Positions 4,039 through 19,401 of a DNA stretch of 19,401 nt are shown here, piece by piece (the first letter of the stretch is position 1; every line of letters starts with the position of its first letter). The stretch is from the UHGV virus genome UHGV-0140152. The stretch is one strand, 5' to 3'. The notes under the pieces are model-generated. The model saw nothing but the letters and a program-made list of their open reading frames with translations, ran no database searches and was not told the origin of the DNA. The position numbers and the translations under genes were made by a program. The DNA comes from a virus.

Positions 4039-4182
4039 ATGGGCGATTTCAAGAAAACCCTGAAGGAAAGAACCGAAATGGTCAGAAAGCAAAACGCCTC
4101 TTCTGTCATCAGATACGCAAGGCAGTTCAGCAAAAACAACAGACAGATTGAAGAGCAAATCAAATCAGTCATAGTCAGATAA
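4039..4182 (+). CDS. possible small basic protein (47 aa) coupled to the upstream gene
   Basis: ATG 2 nt after the upstream stop, open to TAA, followed immediately by a strong terminator. Weak RBS; not in the track. Confidence 0.25.
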   Translation: MGDFKKTLKERTEMVRKQNASSVIRYARQFSKNNRQIEEQIKSVIVR

Positions 4183-4187
4183 GAAAC

Positions 4188-4229
4188 AGCGCCAGAAAAG
4201 CCAACGGGAGCGATTCTGGCGCTTTTTTT
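4188..4229 (+). terminator. intrinsic terminator
   Basis: AGCGCCAGAA ...TTCTGGCGCT 10-bp stem followed by TTTTTTT. Confidence 0.8.
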
Positions 4230-4317
4230 GTTCTGGTGACAGGATTACTCCTGTCAGGGCTGTTTCTTTTGTTACAGACGCTATCATGAAGACAAAAAGA
4301 GAAGGAAGATCACTGAT

Positions 4318-4425
4318 AGGTCTGGGAGTTACTTCAGTTTTAAAAATGCCTGCTTCCGTATATATAAATAATAAGTAACTTAATAAATATATACGGAAGC
4401 AGGCACTGTTAAGACTCCAGAAGTG
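4318..4425. repeat. structured palindromic element, copy 1 (17-bp stem, conserved AT-rich 22-nt loop)
   Basis: CCTGCTTCCGTATATAT-aaataataagtaacttaataa-ATATATACGGAAGCAGG with flanking ggtctgggag. A near-identical copy lies at 19171-19267. Confidence 0.7.
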
Positions 4426-4656
4426 AGCAAAAATCAACCTAAAAAGACACTGAACTCACCAGAATAAACTTAACCAGCCAGTACAGGCGCTGAAGTCTTC
4501 CGTAGCAGGCATCAAAGGGAATTTCGTTAAGGTACTTCAGCATAGGGTGGATGGATATCAAACCGTATGTGTATTGCCTCTCGTTTGATGCCTCCTGAAG
4601 CACCTTTAAAAGTTTTTTAAAAGCGCTACAATGACTATCAGATAAGAGGAGGTTTT

Positions 4657-4908
4657 ATGAGCTATCAAATTCTGACGACGACAGCAGCCAGCATTACTGA
4701 GCTGAAAAGAAACCCTATGGGCACTGTAGCTGAAGGTGAGGGGGAGGCCGTCGCAATCCTGAACCGGAATGAACCCGCGTTTTACTGTGTCCCACCAGAA
4801 CTTTATGCCTACTATCGGGAACTCGCCGAGGACGCTGAACTTAACGCGATTGCAGATGAAAGAATGAAAGAACCGGACATTGTGAAGGTTAACCTGAATG
4901 ACCTATGA
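4657..4908 (+). CDS. stbD: type II antitoxin, Phd/YefM (StbD-like) family
   Basis: 83-aa protein MSYQILTTTAASITELKRNP... resembling StbD/Phd antitoxins; GAGGAGG RBS; overlaps the downstream RelE-like toxin gene. Confidence 0.8.
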   Translation: MSYQILTTTAASITELKRNPMGTVAEGEGEAVAILNRNEPAFYCVPPELYAYYRELAEDAELNAIADERMKEPDIVKVNLNDL

Positions 4909-5179
4909 GCTGGCATTTGAACGCAGGGCACTGAAAGAATGGCAGAAGCTCGGCCACACTGTTCGTGAACAATTCAAAAAGAAGCTGTCAGAGCGCCTGA
5001 AAAATCCACATGTCCCCGCAGCCAGGCTATATGGTCATACTGACCGTTACAAAATTAAGCTTCGCGCATCCGGTTACAGGCTCGTTTATCAGGTAATTGA
5101 TGAGAAGGTTGTTTTGCTTGTCATTGCTGTAGGAAAAAGGGAAAGCAGCGAAGTCTATCACACGGCTGATACTCGTTAG
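4898..5179 (+). CDS. stbE: type II toxin, RelE/StbE family mRNA interferase
   Basis: 93-aa protein with ...RALKEWQKLG..., ...YKIKLRASGYRLVYQVIDEKVV..., ...VGKRESSEVY..., closely matching E. coli RelE as I recall it. Classic coupled antitoxin-toxin arrangement. Confidence 0.85.
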   Translation: MTYELAFERRALKEWQKLGHTVREQFKKKLSERLKNPHVPAARLYGHTDRYKIKLRASGYRLVYQVIDEKVVLLVIAVGKRESSEVYHTADTR

Positions 5180-5204
5180 CAAAGTGCGCCTTATATCCTC
5201 GCCT

Positions 5205-5440
5205 GTTGACTAAATCTCATAATAACCTGAGGTCAATTTCTTCTGTTTGTGACCTCAGGTTAATTTCCTTTATTTATAACCTTAACTTATTAGGCTGCAT
5301 TTTATTCCGCGTCATCGCTTCATTATTTATGTATATGGCGACCTTATTTAATTACGCCCACCTGAACTTACTTCTTTTCCGCCTGTTTCATTCAGCGATA
5401 ATTAACGCATCGAAACGAAACTAAACGAAAGGAGTTAAAA
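5205..5440 (+). promoter_or_regulatory. cassette leader 1 (homologous to 6200-6342)
   Basis: 12-bp inverted repeats aacctgaggtca / tgacctcaggtt, conserved block cctgaacttacttcttttccgcctgtttcattcagcgat and a conserved RBS context. Confidence 0.55.
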
Positions 5441-6160
5441 ATGAGTGCGCGTCTTAAGAAGCTTATCAAAAAGCGTAAATCTCTTAAAGAACATGCAGAA
5501 TTGATAAATTTAATTGAAAAACGTTTTCCAGTCATTTCGGATATTGAGGACTTCTATTGGGTGGAGAAATGTAAAGTTTGGGATGGCATTGATGATGTAA
5601 AAGATGTGGATGATTTTGTCAGCAAGTACAACCCAGACATTAACTACAAACTAGCTGATGATTTTGCTGGCTCGTCTAAAGATGATCCGCTTCCTGATTG
5701 GTTTAACATTGATGATTATCCTAGTTGCATGTGTACCACCTACACCAACAAAGATTTTAGTAAAGCGTGGTTTGCTATTGCTTATGGCTGTTATTTCAAT
5801 AAGTCCGACGGAAGCAAAAGACCATATTTTCTCGCTGAAATAGACTTAACCAGCGGAGAGATTACAGTACACGAAAACCACAGGAATCTAATGAAGCTTG
5901 TTGATAGCGTTCGCGTACTGGATACAGACGCCCAGCAATTAACGAACAATGCATGGTTCGGACTTGATGGAGTAAAAGGGGGTATCGAACTGATAATGGG
6001 TCATCTTTTAAATGAATACTCGGACTGGTATCATCCGCCACACAATCCGCTTGAGTCATTTGACGATCCGCTTGAGCCATTTGACGATCCGCTGAAGGAC
6101 TACATCGATGAACCAATATATATGATGGAATCTTTTCAATTAGATATGATTCCAGCATGA
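5441..6160 (+). CDS. highly acidic hypothetical protein (239 aa); distant paralog of 8856..9503
   Basis: Track ORF; AAGGAG RBS. Shares ...DFSKAWF...FLAEIDLTSGEITV... and NPLESFDD with the minus-strand protein at 8856..9503. Confidence 0.75.
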   Translation: MSARLKKLIKKRKSLKEHAELINLIEKRFPVISDIEDFYWVEKCKVWDGIDDVKDVDDFVSKYNPDINYKLADDFAGSSKDDPLPDWFNIDDYPSCMCTTYTNKDFSKAWFAIAYGCYFNKSDGSKRPYFLAEIDLTSGEITVHENHRNLMKLVDSVRVLDTDAQQLTNNAWFGLDGVKGGIELIMGHLLNEYSDWYHPPHNPLESFDDPLEPFDDPLKDYIDEPIYMMESFQLDMIPA

Positions 6161-6165
6161 CAAAC

Positions 6166-6197
6166 GCCACCAGTTAACGCTGGTGGCTTCAAGTTTT
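6166..6197 (+). terminator. intrinsic terminator
   Basis: GCCACCAG ttaacg CTGGTGGC followed by TTCAAGTTTT. Confidence 0.65.
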
Positions 6198-6199
6198 GC

Positions 6200-6342
6200 T
6201 CTCATCACCTCAGGTCAAATTTCCTCGTTTGCAACCTCAGGTCAATTTAAGAATGATATCACCTGTATCCCTGAACTTACTTCTTTTCTGCCTGTTTCAT
6301 TCAGCGATGATTATTACATCGAAAACAAACGAGGAATTAAAA
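6200..6342 (+). promoter_or_regulatory. cassette leader 2 (homologous to 5205-5440)
   Basis: Two acctcaggtcaa repeats, conserved block cctgaacttacttcttttctgcctgtttcattcagcgat and GAGGA RBS. Confidence 0.55.
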
Positions 6343-7269
6343 ATGAAACCAGTATTTTTGGGGCGAATTGATATTAGTGAATTGTTTTCAGTTAGAGATG
6401 GGTTCCAATATGACTGTGATTGCCTTGAACTTAATGGTCTTGAACGTGAATACAGATTGGCTATTGTGAATGATGGTAAGAAGACATTTTCTGTCGAATG
6501 TTTTGAAAATACTTACTTTAAGCAGGTGTTGAGAATAAGACAGCATGTGGAGATGTCAATTCGGGAAAACATCAAAAATAAATGTGAGTTTCTTGTGGTT
6601 AAAAATGAAGCAGATGAAATAAACTTTGTTACGTTCACTGATAGTGGTCGATTGGCTATGCTGGAGCTATTTCAGCTGATCGTTTCTAATAACAGTATAA
6701 CAGAAGCCTTGAACAGTCTTTCAACTATAGTATCAAGAGAAAGAGAAAACACTGGCGCTTTAATTGTAGAGGAGCTAGATGGAATACTCGAGAAGATCAA
6801 GAATAAAGAGCTGATTATAGAATATGGCAAGGAAAGTAGGAAAAATAATTTACATTCAGCTTTTCACTCCCCATATGTTGAGCGTTTGAATGGTTTGGCT
6901 GCTTTTGTTAATTTGGACTTTAATAGATTTTTTAGTTCTTTTTTTACAGAGTGTGGGCTTGTTATTGTTGAGGTAAATAATGAGAACGATGTCCCCAAAA
7001 TTATAGTACATTCGATGCCTGATATATCTCTCAATGAAATTGGGGACAAACTGGAGAATTTATACGATGTAAAAAGCATGGAAGAACTCATAGAGTATCT
7101 GGCCATAAATGCGGTAGCCATGGCTGATAATGATGTGTTTGGGGTTGGTGCACTGCATGAAGGTTTTCTTGACGCCCTTGAGCTTTACGGGACTGCTCGC
7201 TGGTTTCTGTCAGGATTAGTGGATGATGCACCTTTACTCATCAATACAGATTATTTTTATTCCAGTTGA
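6343..7269 (+). CDS. hypothetical protein (308 aa)
   Basis: In-frame ATG within track ORF 6196..7269, placed after the conserved leader and GAGGA RBS. No family recognised. Confidence 0.7.
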   Translation: MKPVFLGRIDISELFSVRDGFQYDCDCLELNGLEREYRLAIVNDGKKTFSVECFENTYFKQVLRIRQHVEMSIRENIKNKCEFLVVKNEADEINFVTFTDSGRLAMLELFQLIVSNNSITEALNSLSTIVSRERENTGALIVEELDGILEKIKNKELIIEYGKESRKNNLHSAFHSPYVERLNGLAAFVNLDFNRFFSSFFTECGLVIVEVNNENDVPKIIVHSMPDISLNEIGDKLENLYDVKSMEELIEYLAINAVAMADNDVFGVGALHEGFLDALELYGTARWFLSGLVDDAPLLINTDYFYSS

Positions 7270-7275
7270 AAACAA

Positions 7276-7300: not shown

Positions 7301-7472
7301 TGACCATCCTGTCTCCCGCAGGCTAAAAACACCAACCTCTTACCTCCAGGCAACCGACAAACCCACCTGTTCCCGTCCGGCTACCGCAACTTTCCACTTT
7401 GACGCCTTATTCGTACAACCATAATTAACACCAACAAGAGAACAATTTGTTATTTAGAATAAGGAATCAATC

Positions 7473-8801: not shown

Positions 8802-8823
8802 GCTTTAAAAACTCCTTTAAATG

Positions 8824-8841
8824 CGCCCATATTTGGGCGCA
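8824..8841. repeat. hairpin GCGCCCATATTTGGGCGC (identical copy at 9577-9594)
   Basis: Perfect 7-bp stem between the stop of 8856..9503 and the RBS of 8571..8801. Confidence 0.6.
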
Positions 8842-8855
8842 TGATTTATATGGTA

Positions 8856-9536: not shown

Positions 9537-9594
9537 AATAAAGCTAATATTAGCTTTATTCCGAGTTTTATCTCATGCGCCCATATTTGGGCGC
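9537..9594. repeat. perfect 24-bp palindrome plus second copy of the GCGCCCATATTTGGGCGC hairpin
   Basis: AATAAAGCTAATATTAGCTTTATT (9537-9560) and gcgcccatatttgggcgc (9577-9594), between the genes at 9608..10258 and 8856..9503. Confidence 0.6.
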
Positions 9595-9607
9595 TTGATT
9601 CCATTAA

Positions 9608-12066: not shown

Positions 12067-12152
12067 CTCCGGTTCTTAAGCATAGATAAGCCTACAAAAT
12101 TAATTCAGTCGATCAAGATCTTTTTTCAGCCGGAAGTTTATGTATCAAGAAG

Positions 12153-12168
12153 TGTGATCAAGTTCACA
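12153..12168. promoter_or_regulatory. perfect CRP-consensus-like palindrome TGTGA-N6-TCACA, about 95 bp upstream of 11515..12066
   Basis: tgtgatcaagttcaca inside a roughly 110-bp segment homologous to 13293-13415. Confidence 0.45.
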
Positions 12169-12311
12169 TACTGCTTTGCCAGAAGAATACCATATGCAAA
12201 ACATTCTATTGCTGTTAAAATTTAATCGTTCAGACATAAGGAAGCCCTATACCCTCGACAAATCTTTCTGGTATTGTCGAGGGCATGTTTCACATTTATA
12301 GGTAGATAGCG

Positions 12312-13292: not shown

Positions 13293-13390
13293 TATAATTC
13301 GACCTACTGGAATATCTTGATTTAAGAGGCTACAAATATCGTTCAGCCAATCAAGAAATTTTTTCAGCCGGAGGTTTGTACTTCAAAAAA

Positions 13391-13406
13391 TGTGATGAAT
13401 GTCACA
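13391..13406. promoter_or_regulatory. perfect CRP-consensus-like palindrome TGTGA-N6-TCACA, about 105 bp upstream of the HNH gene
   Basis: tgtgatgaatgtcaca within the duplicated promoter segment; on the minus strand it is followed by TTTTTT. Confidence 0.45.
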
Positions 13407-13431
13407 TGCAGGTGCGCTCATACACCTGCAT
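13404..13431 (-). terminator. hairpin after the stop of 13440..14006; likely terminator of the helicase operon
   Basis: CATGCAGGTG cgctcata CACCTGCATG, a perfect 10-bp stem, 9 nt past the stop codon. Confidence 0.5.
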
Positions 13432-13439
13432 GTAGACTA

Positions 13440-15976: not shown

Positions 15977-16675
15977 GTGGATTGTAGCAATAAAATGGAT
16001 GTAAAAATTACGATTTTGCAGGTTGATGTTGCCAACCTTCGCCCGAATACCTGGAACACCAATTCGGTTGGTGCGCAGAATTTTGAAAAACTGAAAGGTT
16101 CTATCGAAAAATTAGGCTTTTTTAAACCAATTTTGGCTCGTGAAATTGAAGATGGATTTTTTGAAATCCTCGGTGGCGAACATCGCTGGCGTGCCGCTAT
16201 TGAGCAAGGAATTTCAACGGTTCCAGTGCTTTCTGTGGGCAAAATTAGCGATGTCGTAGCTAAACAGATGTCACTGGTGGACAACGAGCGATATGGTGAA
16301 GACGACCAAATCGCATTGCAACGCTTCATTGAAGAAATTCAGTCAGAACTTGACTATCAACTGTCTGAAATCGCCCCGTATGACGACGAAATCTCGATGG
16401 TTTTAGCAAAAGAGGCGGCAATCGACCTTGAAGCACTGGAGGCGTTGTCTCGTGGTAGTGATGAGCCTGTCGATACCGACAAACGAGAGAAAACCGAACG
16501 TGTGGGGGCGGAACATCAGACCATGCGCTTCAAAGTAACTTTCGATGCGTCAGATCGTGTTGCAGAAACCATAAAAAACATCATCAAAGAGCAGGCTATT
16601 AACACCGGTAATGAAATGGAGAACGCTGGTGAGGCTCTGGTGTGGCTGGTCGACTACTACAAGGAGCGTATGTAA
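15977..16675 (+). CDS. ParB/Srx-like N-terminal domain protein (about 226-232 aa)
   Basis: ParB-box-like motif ILGGEHRWRAAIEQG. The track start at 15977 is GTG; an alternative ATG lies at 15995; no strong RBS for either. Confidence 0.7.
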   Translation: MDCSNKMDVKITILQVDVANLRPNTWNTNSVGAQNFEKLKGSIEKLGFFKPILAREIEDGFFEILGGEHRWRAAIEQGISTVPVLSVGKISDVVAKQMSLVDNERYGEDDQIALQRFIEEIQSELDYQLSEIAPYDDEISMVLAKEAAIDLEALEALSRGSDEPVDTDKREKTERVGAEHQTMRFKVTFDASDRVAETIKNIIKEQAINTGNEMENAGEALVWLVDYYKERM

Positions 16676-17343
16676 TGACCAAAAAGTTTGAAATCGTATA
16701 TCGCGACCCGGCAGATCTTATTCCCTATGAGATGAATGCCAAAAAGCATGATGAACAGCAGATCCGAGATCTGGCCGCAGCCATTAAAAAGCGCGGATTT
16801 GACCAGCCAATTACGGTCGATAAGAACGACGTAATTATTACTGGCCACGGCCGCCGTGAGGCTGCAATTTTTGCTGGACTTGAGCGCGTACCGGTTATTG
16901 TTCGCGATGATCTCAGTGATGACGAGGTTCGTGCGAAGCGCCTTGAAGATAACCGACTTGCCAGCATTGATTACGATGCAATTAAGCTACAGAAAGAGCT
17001 TGAGTCGCTTGTTCTGGACGATATCGAGGTTTTCGGCTTTGAAGAGCGTGAGTTGAATGTTCTCGTTGGCAGCATGACAGAAGAAATGGACACCGACTCG
17101 CTAGTTATCGATCTGGGCGAAGAAACTAAACGACAGAAGGATGAACACACCGAGATCAGTCGTGAAGTTGCAGCGGAAGAAGTACGTGTTGTCGACGTAT
17201 TGGGCTTTAAAACGCTCCCTGCTGGCTCTGCCATTGTTGTTGGTGATTTGCTTGCCCACATGGAAGAAATGACGAGAGAAAGCGGGGTAGACGCATTTGT
17301 GGCATATGCGGAGAAGATCTCTTCCGGGGAGATGGCTGCATGA
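16675..17343 (+). CDS. second ParB/Srx-like domain protein (222 aa)
   Basis: Motif IITGHGRREAAIFAG. Preferred start is the ATG at 16675 within track ORF 16642..17343, 8 nt after AAGGAG and overlapping the upstream stop by 1 nt. Acidic C-terminal half. Confidence 0.75.
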   Translation: MTKKFEIVYRDPADLIPYEMNAKKHDEQQIRDLAAAIKKRGFDQPITVDKNDVIITGHGRREAAIFAGLERVPVIVRDDLSDDEVRAKRLEDNRLASIDYDAIKLQKELESLVLDDIEVFGFEERELNVLVGSMTEEMDTDSLVIDLGEETKRQKDEHTEISREVAAEEVRVVDVLGFKTLPAGSAIVVGDLLAHMEEMTRESGVDAFVAYAEKISSGEMAA

Positions 17344-18005
17344 GCAAATACATCATCAACGTATCGTTTCAGACACGCGTAAATAAAACCACGCGCACGT
17401 TGGAAATCGCTGAGTCGTTCGGGCTTGGCCTGGACGAAAAAGAGTGGACGCTTTACGACAATCTGGAGCTGGAAGTGAAGCAGGGCGATGTGGTGTACAT
17501 CACCGGCCAATCCGGTTCAGGTAAATCCGTTGTGTTGCGCGAGCTGCAACGCCAGATGAAGGATGAAGGGCTTTCTGTAGCTTCTATTGATGACTTTACC
17601 TTCGATAATGAGGTTAACGTCATTGACCAACTGGGCAAAACTACCAGTGATGCGCTTGGGTTGTTATCTATGGCAGGTCTGAACGATGCATATCTGTTTG
17701 TTCGCAAGCCTTCTGAAATGTCAGACGGTCAGAAATATCGTCTCAAGATTGCCAAACTGATTGAGTCAGGCGCTAAAGTGTGGGCTGCTGACGAGTTCGG
17801 TGCTGTTCTCGATCGTGTAACCGCTCAGGTTGTGGCATCTAACCTCCAGCGTGCCGCTCGAAAGGTTGGTGCGACGGTAATGGTGGCGACGACTCACGAA
17901 GACTTGAAGAACGCGCTGCGCCCGGATATGCAGATCACCAAGCACTACAAAGAACGCGTGAAGGTGGAGTATCACAATGGTAGTCATGATGAGGCTCATT
18001 CATGA
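17340..18005 (+). CDS. stand-alone ABC-type ATPase, nucleotide-binding domain only (221 aa)
   Basis: Walker A GQSGSGKS, signature-like SDGQKYR, Walker B plus D-loop VWAADEFGAVLD, H-loop ATTHE. No permease gene nearby; start overlaps the upstream stop. Confidence 0.8.
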   Translation: MSKYIINVSFQTRVNKTTRTLEIAESFGLGLDEKEWTLYDNLELEVKQGDVVYITGQSGSGKSVVLRELQRQMKDEGLSVASIDDFTFDNEVNVIDQLGKTTSDALGLLSMAGLNDAYLFVRKPSEMSDGQKYRLKIAKLIESGAKVWAADEFGAVLDRVTAQVVASNLQRAARKVGATVMVATTHEDLKNALRPDMQITKHYKERVKVEYHNGSHDEAHS

Positions 18006-18892
18006 CGGACATCATCATTAAACGCTACCGCCCTGAAGAGTTTCCGCGTCATCTGGACTTTCTGGAGCGAATGACAGTCACAAAGGGAACTGTAGAGGAC
18101 TGGCACGCTCTTAAGTCGCTTCACTACAAAACAGACGGCAAACCTTTCGCGCCAACTTACTATCGCTGCGAACTTGACGACCGTCTGGTGGGCGTCGTGG
18201 TTATGGCTTACCCGAAACTACTGCTGGCACCTCGCCACCGCATGTTTCCTAAGTTGAAACCAACCACCAATACCACCGTGGCTAACCAGTACTGGGGTCG
18301 GTACGTGAATAACAACTTTGCGGTGATCAGTCGCTCAGTTGTGGATACTCAGTATCGTGGCGTAGGCGTCTCTTATCGAATGATTAACCTGGTTAGCAGG
18401 ATGCATGACCGGCCAATCATTGAGATCCAGTCCTCGATGAGCAAATACAATCCCTTCGCCATGAAAGCAGGGTTTAAGTTCATCCGCCCTGAGCGACCGA
18501 AGAGCTATGAAAGTGCACTGCGTGTTTTCCAGCGTCATTTTCGCTCCGACCCGGGTGATAACGAGGCGATCGTCAAAGAGTTGTTCGCAATGAGCGAGTC
18601 ACGTCGTCGCCGTGCACTGCGTGATATGGTGGCGGACTACCACAAGAACAGTTCCCTGGCAAAAGCTGGGCGGAATCGTGGCACGACGATTCAGGACATT
18701 GCCGACAGTCTGGTGGACGAGGCCAGCATTGTGAAGCTGCTCAAGGACATTCACAACCTGAGCTTTACGTCTCCGCTGTATGGTGTGTACCGAAACCCTG
18801 ACTTTGGTCGTCGACTGCCTGACACGCTGCCACTGCTGGCATTCGACAAACAACCTTTGGATAAACCGTTAGAAATTGCTTTACCGGCATAA
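18002..18892 (+). CDS. GNAT-like acyltransferase-fold protein with C-terminal extension (296 aa)
   Basis: Motif-A-like AVISRSVVDTQYRGVGVSYRMINLV and motif-B-like YNPFAMKAGFKFI; start overlaps the ABC ATPase stop. Confidence 0.55.
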   Translation: MTDIIIKRYRPEEFPRHLDFLERMTVTKGTVEDWHALKSLHYKTDGKPFAPTYYRCELDDRLVGVVVMAYPKLLLAPRHRMFPKLKPTTNTTVANQYWGRYVNNNFAVISRSVVDTQYRGVGVSYRMINLVSRMHDRPIIEIQSSMSKYNPFAMKAGFKFIRPERPKSYESALRVFQRHFRSDPGDNEAIVKELFAMSESRRRRALRDMVADYHKNSSLAKAGRNRGTTIQDIADSLVDEASIVKLLKDIHNLSFTSPLYGVYRNPDFGRRLPDTLPLLAFDKQPLDKPLEIALPA

Positions 18893-18901
18893 GGATTTGC
18901 C

Positions 18902-19168
18902 ATGACGTTAACCGACAAACAAAAGGACATAATCAAAACGCTCAATCTCGGTTATGAGCGAGGTCATCTACTTGATCTGGACGAATTGCTTGAAGTTTTG
19001 CCGTACAAGACAACCAAGCAAAGTATCCAGTTCTCAATTCGCGCTCTGATAAAAAAGGGGCTGGTGGAGAAAGGGCATACGCGTCAACGCAGTGACAATC
19101 GCTATCACCGCCGGACTCTTGGGTTAACCACTTTAGGTCGAGCCAAAGCGAAGTTACTGGTGATGTAA
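18902..19168 (+). CDS. small basic protein, possible winged-helix DNA-binding regulator (88 aa)
   Basis: Track ORF; start 9 nt after the upstream stop; HTH-like segment TTKQSIQFSIRALIKKGLVEKG; last gene of the operon. Confidence 0.5.
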   Translation: MTLTDKQKDIIKTLNLGYERGHLLDLDELLEVLPYKTTKQSIQFSIRALIKKGLVEKGHTRQRSDNRYHRRTLGLTTLGRAKAKLLVM

Positions 19169-19170
19169 TC

Positions 19171-19267
19171 GGTCTGGGAGCTTATTTAAAGACCTGCTTC
19201 TGTATATATAAATAATAAGTAACTTAATAAATATATACGGAAGCAGGCTTAATAAGACATGCCCAGA
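19171..19267. repeat. structured palindromic element, copy 2
   Basis: ggtctgggag ... CCTGCTTCTGTATATAT-aaataataagtaacttaataa-ATATATACGGAAGCAGG. One C-to-T change in the left arm would keep a G-U pair in RNA. Confidence 0.7.
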
Positions 19268-19282
19268 TTCAATTAAACACAC

Positions 19283-19345
19283 CAGTAAACAAGTTGGTTA
19301 ATAGATGCAGTAAACAAGTTGTTTTAGAGCGCATGGACGCGCTCT
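19283..19345 (+). promoter_or_regulatory. direct repeats and operator-like palindromes upstream of the next gene
   Basis: cagtaaacaagttg twice; the second copy forms AAACAAGTTGTTT, identical to the palindrome at about 2686-2699. Followed by the hairpin AGAGCGC-atggac-GCGCTCT. Confidence 0.45.
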
Positions 19346-19364
19346 ATGTGTTTTAGAGGGATCT

Positions 19365-19401
19365 ATGACTGTCGAAAAAGACGAGGTGAAAACTCGCCTG
19401 A
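19365..19401 (+). CDS. 5' end of a gene running off the window (MTVEKDEVKTRL...)
   Basis: ATG 6 nt after GAGGG, open to the window end. Only 12 codons visible. Confidence 0.4.
   Translation, partial: MTVEKDEVKTRL

Follow-up and report, generated by a model that had tools for sequence, protein, structure and literature searches.

A nested palindrome family at three fixed sites of SSU5-like phage-plasmids, and its possible role as a terminator or insulator before terS

What does a large nested palindrome do directly in front of terS, the first gene of the virion block, and can a single substitution in its stem tell whether it acts as RNA or as DNA? The question is raised by the right end of the window (the whole stretch of 19,401 nucleotides analysed here, from UHGV virus genome UHGV-0140152), which belongs to an SSU5-like phage-plasmid. 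A segment of 302 bases enclosing this palindrome matches 486 plasmids, mostly non-mobilizable ones of about 110 kb from Escherichia and Klebsiella, and also phage records including Cyrano, PhiR41_1 and pJN2-26. A sequence-only reading had described positions 19171-19267 as the second copy of a structured palindrome, and these coordinates do enclose a full nested palindrome, whose core is 95% identical to that of the first copy. The features needed for the discussion are the following.

19171-19267, + strand: nested palindrome, site-A copy, with orthologues in 29 aligned terS-anchored sequences
19173-19178, + strand: outer left arm TCTGGG, partner of 19262-19267; in the alignment these pairs are either conserved or G·U
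19193-19209, + strand: inner left arm CCTGCTTCTGTATATAT, a 17-bp arm that holds T19201
19210-19230, + strand: A+T-only centre of 21 nt, with a small apical stem UAAG/CUUA inside it
19231-19247, + strand: inner right arm ATATATACGGAAGCAGG, a 17-bp arm with G19239 opposite T19201
19262-19267, + strand: outer right arm CCCAGA, partner of TCTGGG
18902-19168, + strand: 88-aa gene, named DNA-binding protein in related phage records; stop codon at 19166-19168
19287-19299 and 19312-19324, + strand: motif AAACAAGTTGKTT, present twice in the stretch from the palindrome to terS
19325-19356, + strand: small terminator-like hairpin TAGAGCGC-ATGGAC-GCGCTCTA followed by TGTGTTTTAG, directly 5' of the terS ribosome-binding site
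19366-19401, + strand: start of terS, first gene of the virion/late block, running off the end of the window
4320-4420, + strand: copy 1 ('W1'), inner arms 4349-4365 and 4387-4403, at a fourth, non-standard site

The terS-proximal palindrome has the layout GGTCTGGGAGCTTATTTAAAGA-CCTGCTTCTGTATATAT-21 nt of A+T-ATATATACGGAAGCAGG-CTTAATAAGACATGCCCAGA; it begins 3 nt past the end of the 88-aa gene, and about 100 nt lie between it and terS. Its stem, 17 bp plus 4-6 bp at the apex, is long and nearly perfect, and the + strand RNA folds at -41.8 kcal/mol (z = -8.6, with none of 200 shuffles as good). The corresponding values are -38.8 kcal/mol (z = -6.7) for the - strand RNA and -22.2 kcal/mol (z = -6.6) for the DNA. 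Since the - strand RNA is weaker by only about 3 kcal/mol, a single wobble costs the opposite strand little. The site-A copies are the most stable and most extended of the family (mean -52 kcal/mol). As a G+C-rich, stable hairpin on the sense strand downstream of a gene, the terS-proximal copy has the first attribute of a terminator; the second, a U-rich tract directly 3' of the stem, is absent, the 9 nt past the right arm being CTTAATAAG with three T.

To place this copy in its family, 172 copies were collected by a pattern scan of IMG/VR and by protein-anchored retrieval and were assigned to sites by the homology of their flanks; a GTDB scan with terS yielded five loci only. All but one of the copies (171 of 172) occupy three orthologous sites, the exception being copy 1 of the window:

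Site A: between the 88-aa gene and terS
Site BD: directly 3' of a Dam-type methylase gene, with variants B and D
Site CE: after the gene upstream of SSU5_038, helicase and primase

SSU5 carries three copies, at 33458, 78304 and 103263, and so does PhiR41_1, at 13435, 45582 and 75115. At all three sites of SSU5 the element starts a few bases past the stop codon of a + strand gene; at the CE site of Cyrano the gap between stop codon and element is 24 nt. At the three paralogous sites in Salmonella, Escherichia, Klebsiella, Yersinia and Kluyvera, both the arms and the A+T centre have kept their sequence, and the arms are clearly under purifying selection relative to the diverging flanks. The centre consists of A and T only and measures 21-35 nt across the family. 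In the CE copy the left flank is highly variable, and the palindrome and the right flank are constant. Neither dispersed copies nor target duplications were found among the 172 collected copies, which thus do not show the many non-orthologous positions of a mobile repeat. Searching the whole window against Rfam gave nothing at the gathering threshold, only generic miRNA-like hairpins scoring 15-24 bits against thresholds of 55-211, and no description of the element was found in the literature on SSU5 concerning cos, palindrome, termini, transcriptome or terminator. The palindrome family is therefore real, conserved and, apparently, previously undescribed.

Copy 1, whose palindrome spans 4336-4416, resembles the site-A copy closely: its core at 4344-4404 is 95% identical to the site-A core over 61 nt (repeat family D8; inverted repeat I1), its RNA folds at -44.7 kcal/mol (z = -8.7), and it too has no + strand U-tract (three T among the 9 nt past the right arm). 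The loop variant ACTTAATAAAT is common to the two copies of the window and recurs in an E. albertii plasmid, again in copy 1; ACTTAATAA is missing from the remaining 28 aligned orthologues of site A, most of which read ACTTATTAA. With such a private variant in both, the two copies of the window must have exchanged sequence recently. In the family as a whole sites A and CE have loop variants that go with the lineage, a sign of concerted evolution; variants of one arm turn up again in the opposite arm at another site, and one arm often drifts alone with its partner unchanged. Relative to PhiR41_1 the window has a cargo insertion of 3.1 kb (4140-7273), and copy 1 lies close to the left edge of it. 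This insertion also contains a canonical terminator (4206-4226) and a ParE-family toxin gene with a small upstream partner (4657-5179), a toxin-antitoxin part that is common to many unrelated plasmids; two further proteins of the insertion had no match in Pfam.

Within the arms the two copies differ only at C4357 of copy 1, which is T19201 at site A, the right arms being identical. As the sequence-only reading had pointed out, T19201 opposite G19239 gives a G·U pair in the + strand RNA and leaves an extruded DNA hairpin mismatched at this place; in the - strand RNA it is A·C. The further step of that reading, from this substitution to a function as plus-strand RNA, holds only in part. Homologues show this pair, stem position 9, in each of four states (C-G, T·G, T-A and C×A), so that one C to T change cannot show the level at which the element acts. 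The T·G state is found in 12 of 29 unique terS-anchored sequences and is the commonest one in the E. coli and Klebsiella lineages at all three sites; at site A it is thus an old and widespread state, not private to the window copy. At site A the SSU5/Salmonella lineage typically has C-G, the compensated T-A is present at every site, and C×A occurs in the SSU5-type BD variant and in the CE copy of PhiR41_1. What does make a function as + strand RNA plausible is the G·U excess of the whole family, together with the U-tracts and the drop in RNA-seq signal considered below, the case being weakest for the site-A copy because it has no U-tract.

The excess emerges from a tally of departures from the consensus at the 14 outer stem pairs, made on protein-anchored sets, for which the sites had been re-sampled via the neighbouring proteins terS, SSU5_038 and Dam as a precaution against ascertainment bias:

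G·U on the + strand: 11 variant types, 65 cells
A·C (equal to G·U on the - strand): 5 variant types, 12 cells
Compensated Watson-Crick pairs: 8 variant types, 20 cells
Mismatches: 10 variant types, 17 cells

In the unpaired downstream flanks wobble-type transitions of the + and - kinds are balanced (26:23 and 38:27), so mutational bias is not the cause of the G·U excess. Among 30 distinct arm haplotypes 95.2% of the cells are paired, and slid controls collapse. As to compensatory substitutions in homologues, the picture is mixed. On the one hand, five pairs have changed on both sides, a number reached by none of 500 shuffles, and the covariation score is 0.146 against 0.127±0.011; on the other hand, some mismatches have become fixed throughout large clades. 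Two stem positions of site A are of this uncompensated kind: position 6, with T to A in 13 sequences of E. coli and T to G in 24 of Klebsiella, and position 8, with C×A in 12 of Klebsiella; for this site alone the covariation term of RNAalifold is only -0.56, with three pairs showing double changes. Moreover, template switching within quasipalindromes can copy one arm from the other and thereby mimic compensation in the DNA even where RNA is not under selection. Two other measures were tried and abandoned. The asymmetry of folding energy, considered as a strand test, had a mixed outcome between sites A, BD and CE: at site A the + strand folds better in 29 of 38 sequences, CE is mixed, and in the SSU5-type (D-type) BD variant the - strand is the more stable one by 12-19 kcal/mol. 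The spacers that separate the outer from the inner arms were checked for site-specific compensation; their complementarity scored 16.1 for self, 14.8 across sites and 11.1 after shuffling, and most of it reflects the outer motif that the sites have in common. We conclude that a lone G·U in a DNA palindrome is not evidence of RNA function, and that the informative test is the family-wide asymmetry of G·U versus A·C with the flanks as a control.

The sister sites give more direct indications of termination. The T content of the 9 nt past the right arm is as follows.

Site CE, U-tract: mean 5.5 T; 24 of 28 flanks with at least 5 T
Site BD, U-tract: mean 4.9 T; 7 of 11 flanks with at least 5 T
Site A, tail: mean 2.9 T; none of 17 distinct flanks with at least 5 T

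At BD and CE the mirror count of A 5' of the left arm is lower than the count of T 3' of the right arm, which means that the U-tract belongs to the + strand only. The two BD variants, E. coli-type and SSU5-type, have unrelated flanks and a T-run in both. A hairpin followed by a U-tract on the sense strand, as in a terminator, is therefore present at BD and CE. The transcript data concern Cyrano in E. coli LF82, where the par-region genes CYRAN_28, CYRAN_29 and CYRAN_30 have RNA-seq values of 50, 89 and 55 and CYRAN_31 has 6.2 (PMC9928086, S1 table); at gene level expression thus drops about 9-fold across CE (55 to 6.2 FPKM-type units), and in macrophage samples it falls from a log2 of about 10 to about 3-4, that is by about 7 log2 units, likewise at gene level (PMC9928086). 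In the 194-nt CE spacer of Cyrano the palindrome is directly followed by TCTTTTAAAG, with the run TCTTTT, and no other strong or terminator-like hairpin was found in this spacer. The gene-level values indicate, if indirectly, that transcripts end at the CE element. Across site A, from CYRAN_123 to CYRAN_1, the drop is about 2-4-fold, between values near the floor and confounded by the small downstream terminator (PMC9928086).

More distant relatives, whose Dam proteins are 59-63% identical, have a large hairpin right after the Dam gene, with the arms and the outer repeat rewritten yet complementary. The BD hairpin of one of them (L360) has the arms GCCTTGCTCCCATA/TATGGGAGCAAGGC and folds at -51 kcal/mol, and a second (L362) is similar. 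A double compensation, CCTGCGTCTG/CAGACGCAGG, is seen in locus L305. A strict two-arm pattern with arms of the L360 type found only the BD copy in the distant genome, a 14-mer scan of that genome being swamped by chance matches, and these arms had no match in the plasmid collection. In a further group (L351-L358, at about 1340-1440) only the right half of the Dam-site palindrome is left (…ATATACAGAGCCAGGC), and a canonical 13-bp hairpin followed by CTTTTGT adjoins the surviving half; it looks like a functional replacement of the decayed palindrome.

The small hairpin between the site-A palindrome and terS (GAGCGC...GCGCTC, then a T-run) has orthologues with the stems GAGCAC/GTGCTC, GAGCAT/GTGCTC and GAGTGC/GCGCTC, that is with compensatory and G·U changes. 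Its place just before terS implies that late-gene transcription must read through it. The direct repeat GTTTTAGAG flanks this hairpin, and RNAfold also allows an alternative, G·U-rich pairing that covers part of the terS ribosome-binding region. Among the small neighbouring proteins, including the 88-aa one, none had a match in Pfam. Just 5' of the 88-aa gene and terS, at 15977-18892, there is a gene cluster, also kept in SSU5, which encodes two adjacent ParB_N-domain proteins, an ABC-type ATPase and a 296-aa protein that had no Pfam match.

Several other repeats of the window deserve mention in their own right. The palindromic 13-nt motif AAACAAnTTGTTT occurs in 11 copies in the window (starting at 211, 262, 940, 2136, 2687, 3590, 7440, 13087, 14325, 19287 and 19312) and in 23-30 copies per genome; in SSU5 many of them lie a few tens of nucleotides 5' of start codons, and the motif is a candidate operator or phage-specific promoter element. 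Several + strand genes are preceded by direct repeats of 61 nt (5361-5421, 6270-6330 and 7384-7444), and at 996-1083 and 7325-7390 there are tandem units, each about 30 nt long (AAAACAACCAACCTC…GGCTACCG); both have the appearance of leader or regulatory segments that recur within the early region. An 81-nt direct repeat with 77% identity (12089-12169 and 13327-13407) lies upstream of two - strand genes. Finally, the hairpins at 8821-8846 and 9575-9600 (GCGCCCATATTTGGGCGC) are near-identical (96%), and each is located just 3' of a - strand ORF (215 and 216 aa), so that reuse of terminator-like hairpins is seen elsewhere in the genome as well.

Taken as a whole, this family of palindromes, each about 100 nt long, most resembles intrinsic terminators or insulator hairpins that recur at operon boundaries, and it also has features of repeated intergenic palindromes. 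For the terS copy we suppose, tentatively and at somewhat less than even confidence, that as a member of this three-site family it acts as a stable + strand stem-loop which ends or insulates upstream transcription. According to this proposal, a very stable stem-loop would form in the + strand transcript and would end, or insulate, the upstream transcription unit, so that read-through from genes active in the plasmid state would be kept out of the lytic and late operons. At BD and CE the hairpin with its U-tract would have the form of an intrinsic terminator. At site A the palindrome would probably be a pause signal or a barrier defining the 3' end, acting jointly with the small terminator that follows 60 nt further on (19325-19356). 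The anatomy, the conservation, the strand-specific U-tracts, the G·U excess and the fall in expression at one sister site are observations; that the terS copy itself ends or insulates transcription is an inference, and since this copy has no U-tract, we do not class it as a canonical terminator.

Among the other explanations, the one that comes nearest in our estimate, though we consider it rather unlikely, is a site acting at the level of DNA, either protein-bound or extruded as a cruciform, which would serve as a lytic origin or unwinding element, an entry point for priming or recombination, or a topological or partition accessory, the T-runs being secondary. Such a site would account for arm sequences that are near-invariant at three paralogous positions in every lineage sampled amid divergent flanks, for the two nested two-fold symmetric repeats around a pure A+T centre of 21-35 bp, for one copy directly 5' of the helicase-primase genes and another directly 5' of terS, for the covariation of loop variants between sites within a lineage, for arms that often drift singly, and for a DNA hairpin that is itself highly non-random (z = -6.6). 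It is less easily reconciled with the hairpin of the distant relatives, which is there despite different arm sequences, and neither U-tracts on the + strand only, nor G·U in excess of A·C, nor a canonical terminator taking the palindrome's place would be expected of a purely DNA-level site; nor was a candidate binding protein found, the small neighbours being without Pfam matches. At the level of RNA, a processing or regulated site may be envisaged by analogy, in which RNase III would cut the interrupted duplex of about 25 bp or a phage factor would block termination in the lytic cycle. The length and near-perfection of the stem would suit it, conservation in excess of structure suggests specific recognition, the terS copies lack a U-tract and yet are the most stable and extended, and the separate small terminator before terS implies that signals are read through late in the cycle; the family has, however, no counterpart in Rfam, where the generic hairpin matches stay far under threshold, and we regard this variant as quite unlikely.

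Still another possibility is that the palindrome is a repeat with no dedicated function, kept and homogenised by gene conversion or template switching and marking the recombination joints of modules and cargo. Copy 1 near the edge of the cargo insertion, the CE copy with its variable left flank beside a constant palindrome and right flank, the loop variant ACTTAATAAAT private to the two window copies, and the arm variants that recur in the opposite arm at another site are all in its favour, but a repeat without function would hardly keep the same three positions in Salmonella, Escherichia, Klebsiella, Yersinia and Kluyvera, produce no dispersed copies, and have arms under purifying selection relative to the flanks; we hold this to be very improbable. 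Least probable of all, to the point of being almost negligible, is a packaging signal, a cos or pac site adjoining terS. The idea draws on the position of the element immediately 5' of terS and on the GenBank records of SSU5 (JQ965645) and Cyrano (OV696614), both linearised inside the loop of the terS palindrome. A packaging site should be single-copy, and there are three or four copies per genome; distant terS relatives (L209 and L210) have direct repeats and a terminator 5' of terS and no palindrome. TerL matches Terminase_6N and Terminase_3, and its nearest characterised relatives belong to Jersey-like, T5-like and cluster-D-type phages, which we take not to be classical cos phages. The Cyrano paper reports no determination of termini, and contigs (L066, L262 and L279) also start inside the CE copy, so that the record ends are better explained by assembly breaks at a multi-copy repeat. 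On these four grounds (copy number, TerL type, contig breaks in CE copies and the lack of reported work on Cyrano termini) a cos site in particular was rejected. Public records and contigs of this group are often linearised inside the palindromes, probably through an artefact that the multi-copy repeat or the hairpin causes in assembly, and such breaks could be mistaken for physical genome ends.

Comparison with known systems helps to delimit the preferred reading, that of a terminator or insulator. Like intrinsic (Rho-independent) terminators, the element has a G+C-rich stem base just past a stop codon in the sense orientation, a U-tract at BD and CE and a transcript drop at CE; it differs from them in its 17-bp stem with an A+T top of 21-35 nt, much larger than usual, in the reuse of one sequence at three sites with conservation across genera, and in the site-A copy without a U-tract. 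The REP/BIME and ERIC elements of enterobacteria and the Correia elements of Neisseria are transcribed within mRNAs and can end, stabilise or process transcripts. They are likewise multi-copy imperfect nested palindromes, but ours is confined to three orthologous sites plus one extra in a single phage-plasmid family, and no sequence similarity between it and REP/BIME, ERIC or Correia elements was found. The RNase III sites of phage T7 and the sib site of lambda represent several sequence-related long hairpins between genes of co-oriented phage operons; the palindromes share this arrangement, with the difference that two of their three sites look like terminators. In the PR'-tR' region of lambda (6S RNA), a terminator lies just 5' of the first late or packaging gene, and it is the hairpin at 19325-19356 that fits this pattern, whereas the large palindrome is without a lambda counterpart and neither a Q-like factor nor a late promoter was identified here. 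Herpes simplex oriS and oriL are A+T-centred palindromes with inverted initiator boxes, present in several copies per genome. The inverted G+C-containing boxes around a pure A+T centre and the multiple copies are common to both, but the strand-specific U-tracts and the G·U excess of our palindrome point to RNA. With cos and pac sites it shares the position beside terS, and it differs in being multi-copy, in having a TerL that is not of the cos type, and in record ends that assembly breaks explain.

The sequence of the palindrome is conserved well beyond what a terminator needs, and a sequence-specific reader, either a protein acting on DNA or RNA or a processing enzyme, may therefore exist. 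This leads to a more speculative proposal, which we regard as unlikely though worth stating: rather than passive terminators, the palindromes would be cis sites of specific sequence, which a factor of the phage-plasmid reads in RNA or in extruded DNA and which serve as switch points between the programmes of the plasmid and the lytic state. It is conceivable that they are regulated terminators overridden on induction; equally conceivable are hairpin or cruciform sites at which the phage-plasmid's own SbcCD-like nuclease and RecA-like recombinase, or its helicase-primase, start lytic replication. Either version, if true, would account for the conservation of the sequence itself, and not of its pairing alone, at the three boundaries between modules.

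Clinical Enterobacteriaceae commonly harbour phage-plasmids of the SSU5 type, and resistance genes are often among the cargo of phage-plasmids. How they silence their lytic genes while the plasmid and cargo genes are expressed is not well understood. Three strong hairpins situated at the boundaries of the virion, replication and early/cargo blocks offer concrete and testable candidates for the insulator elements of such a system.
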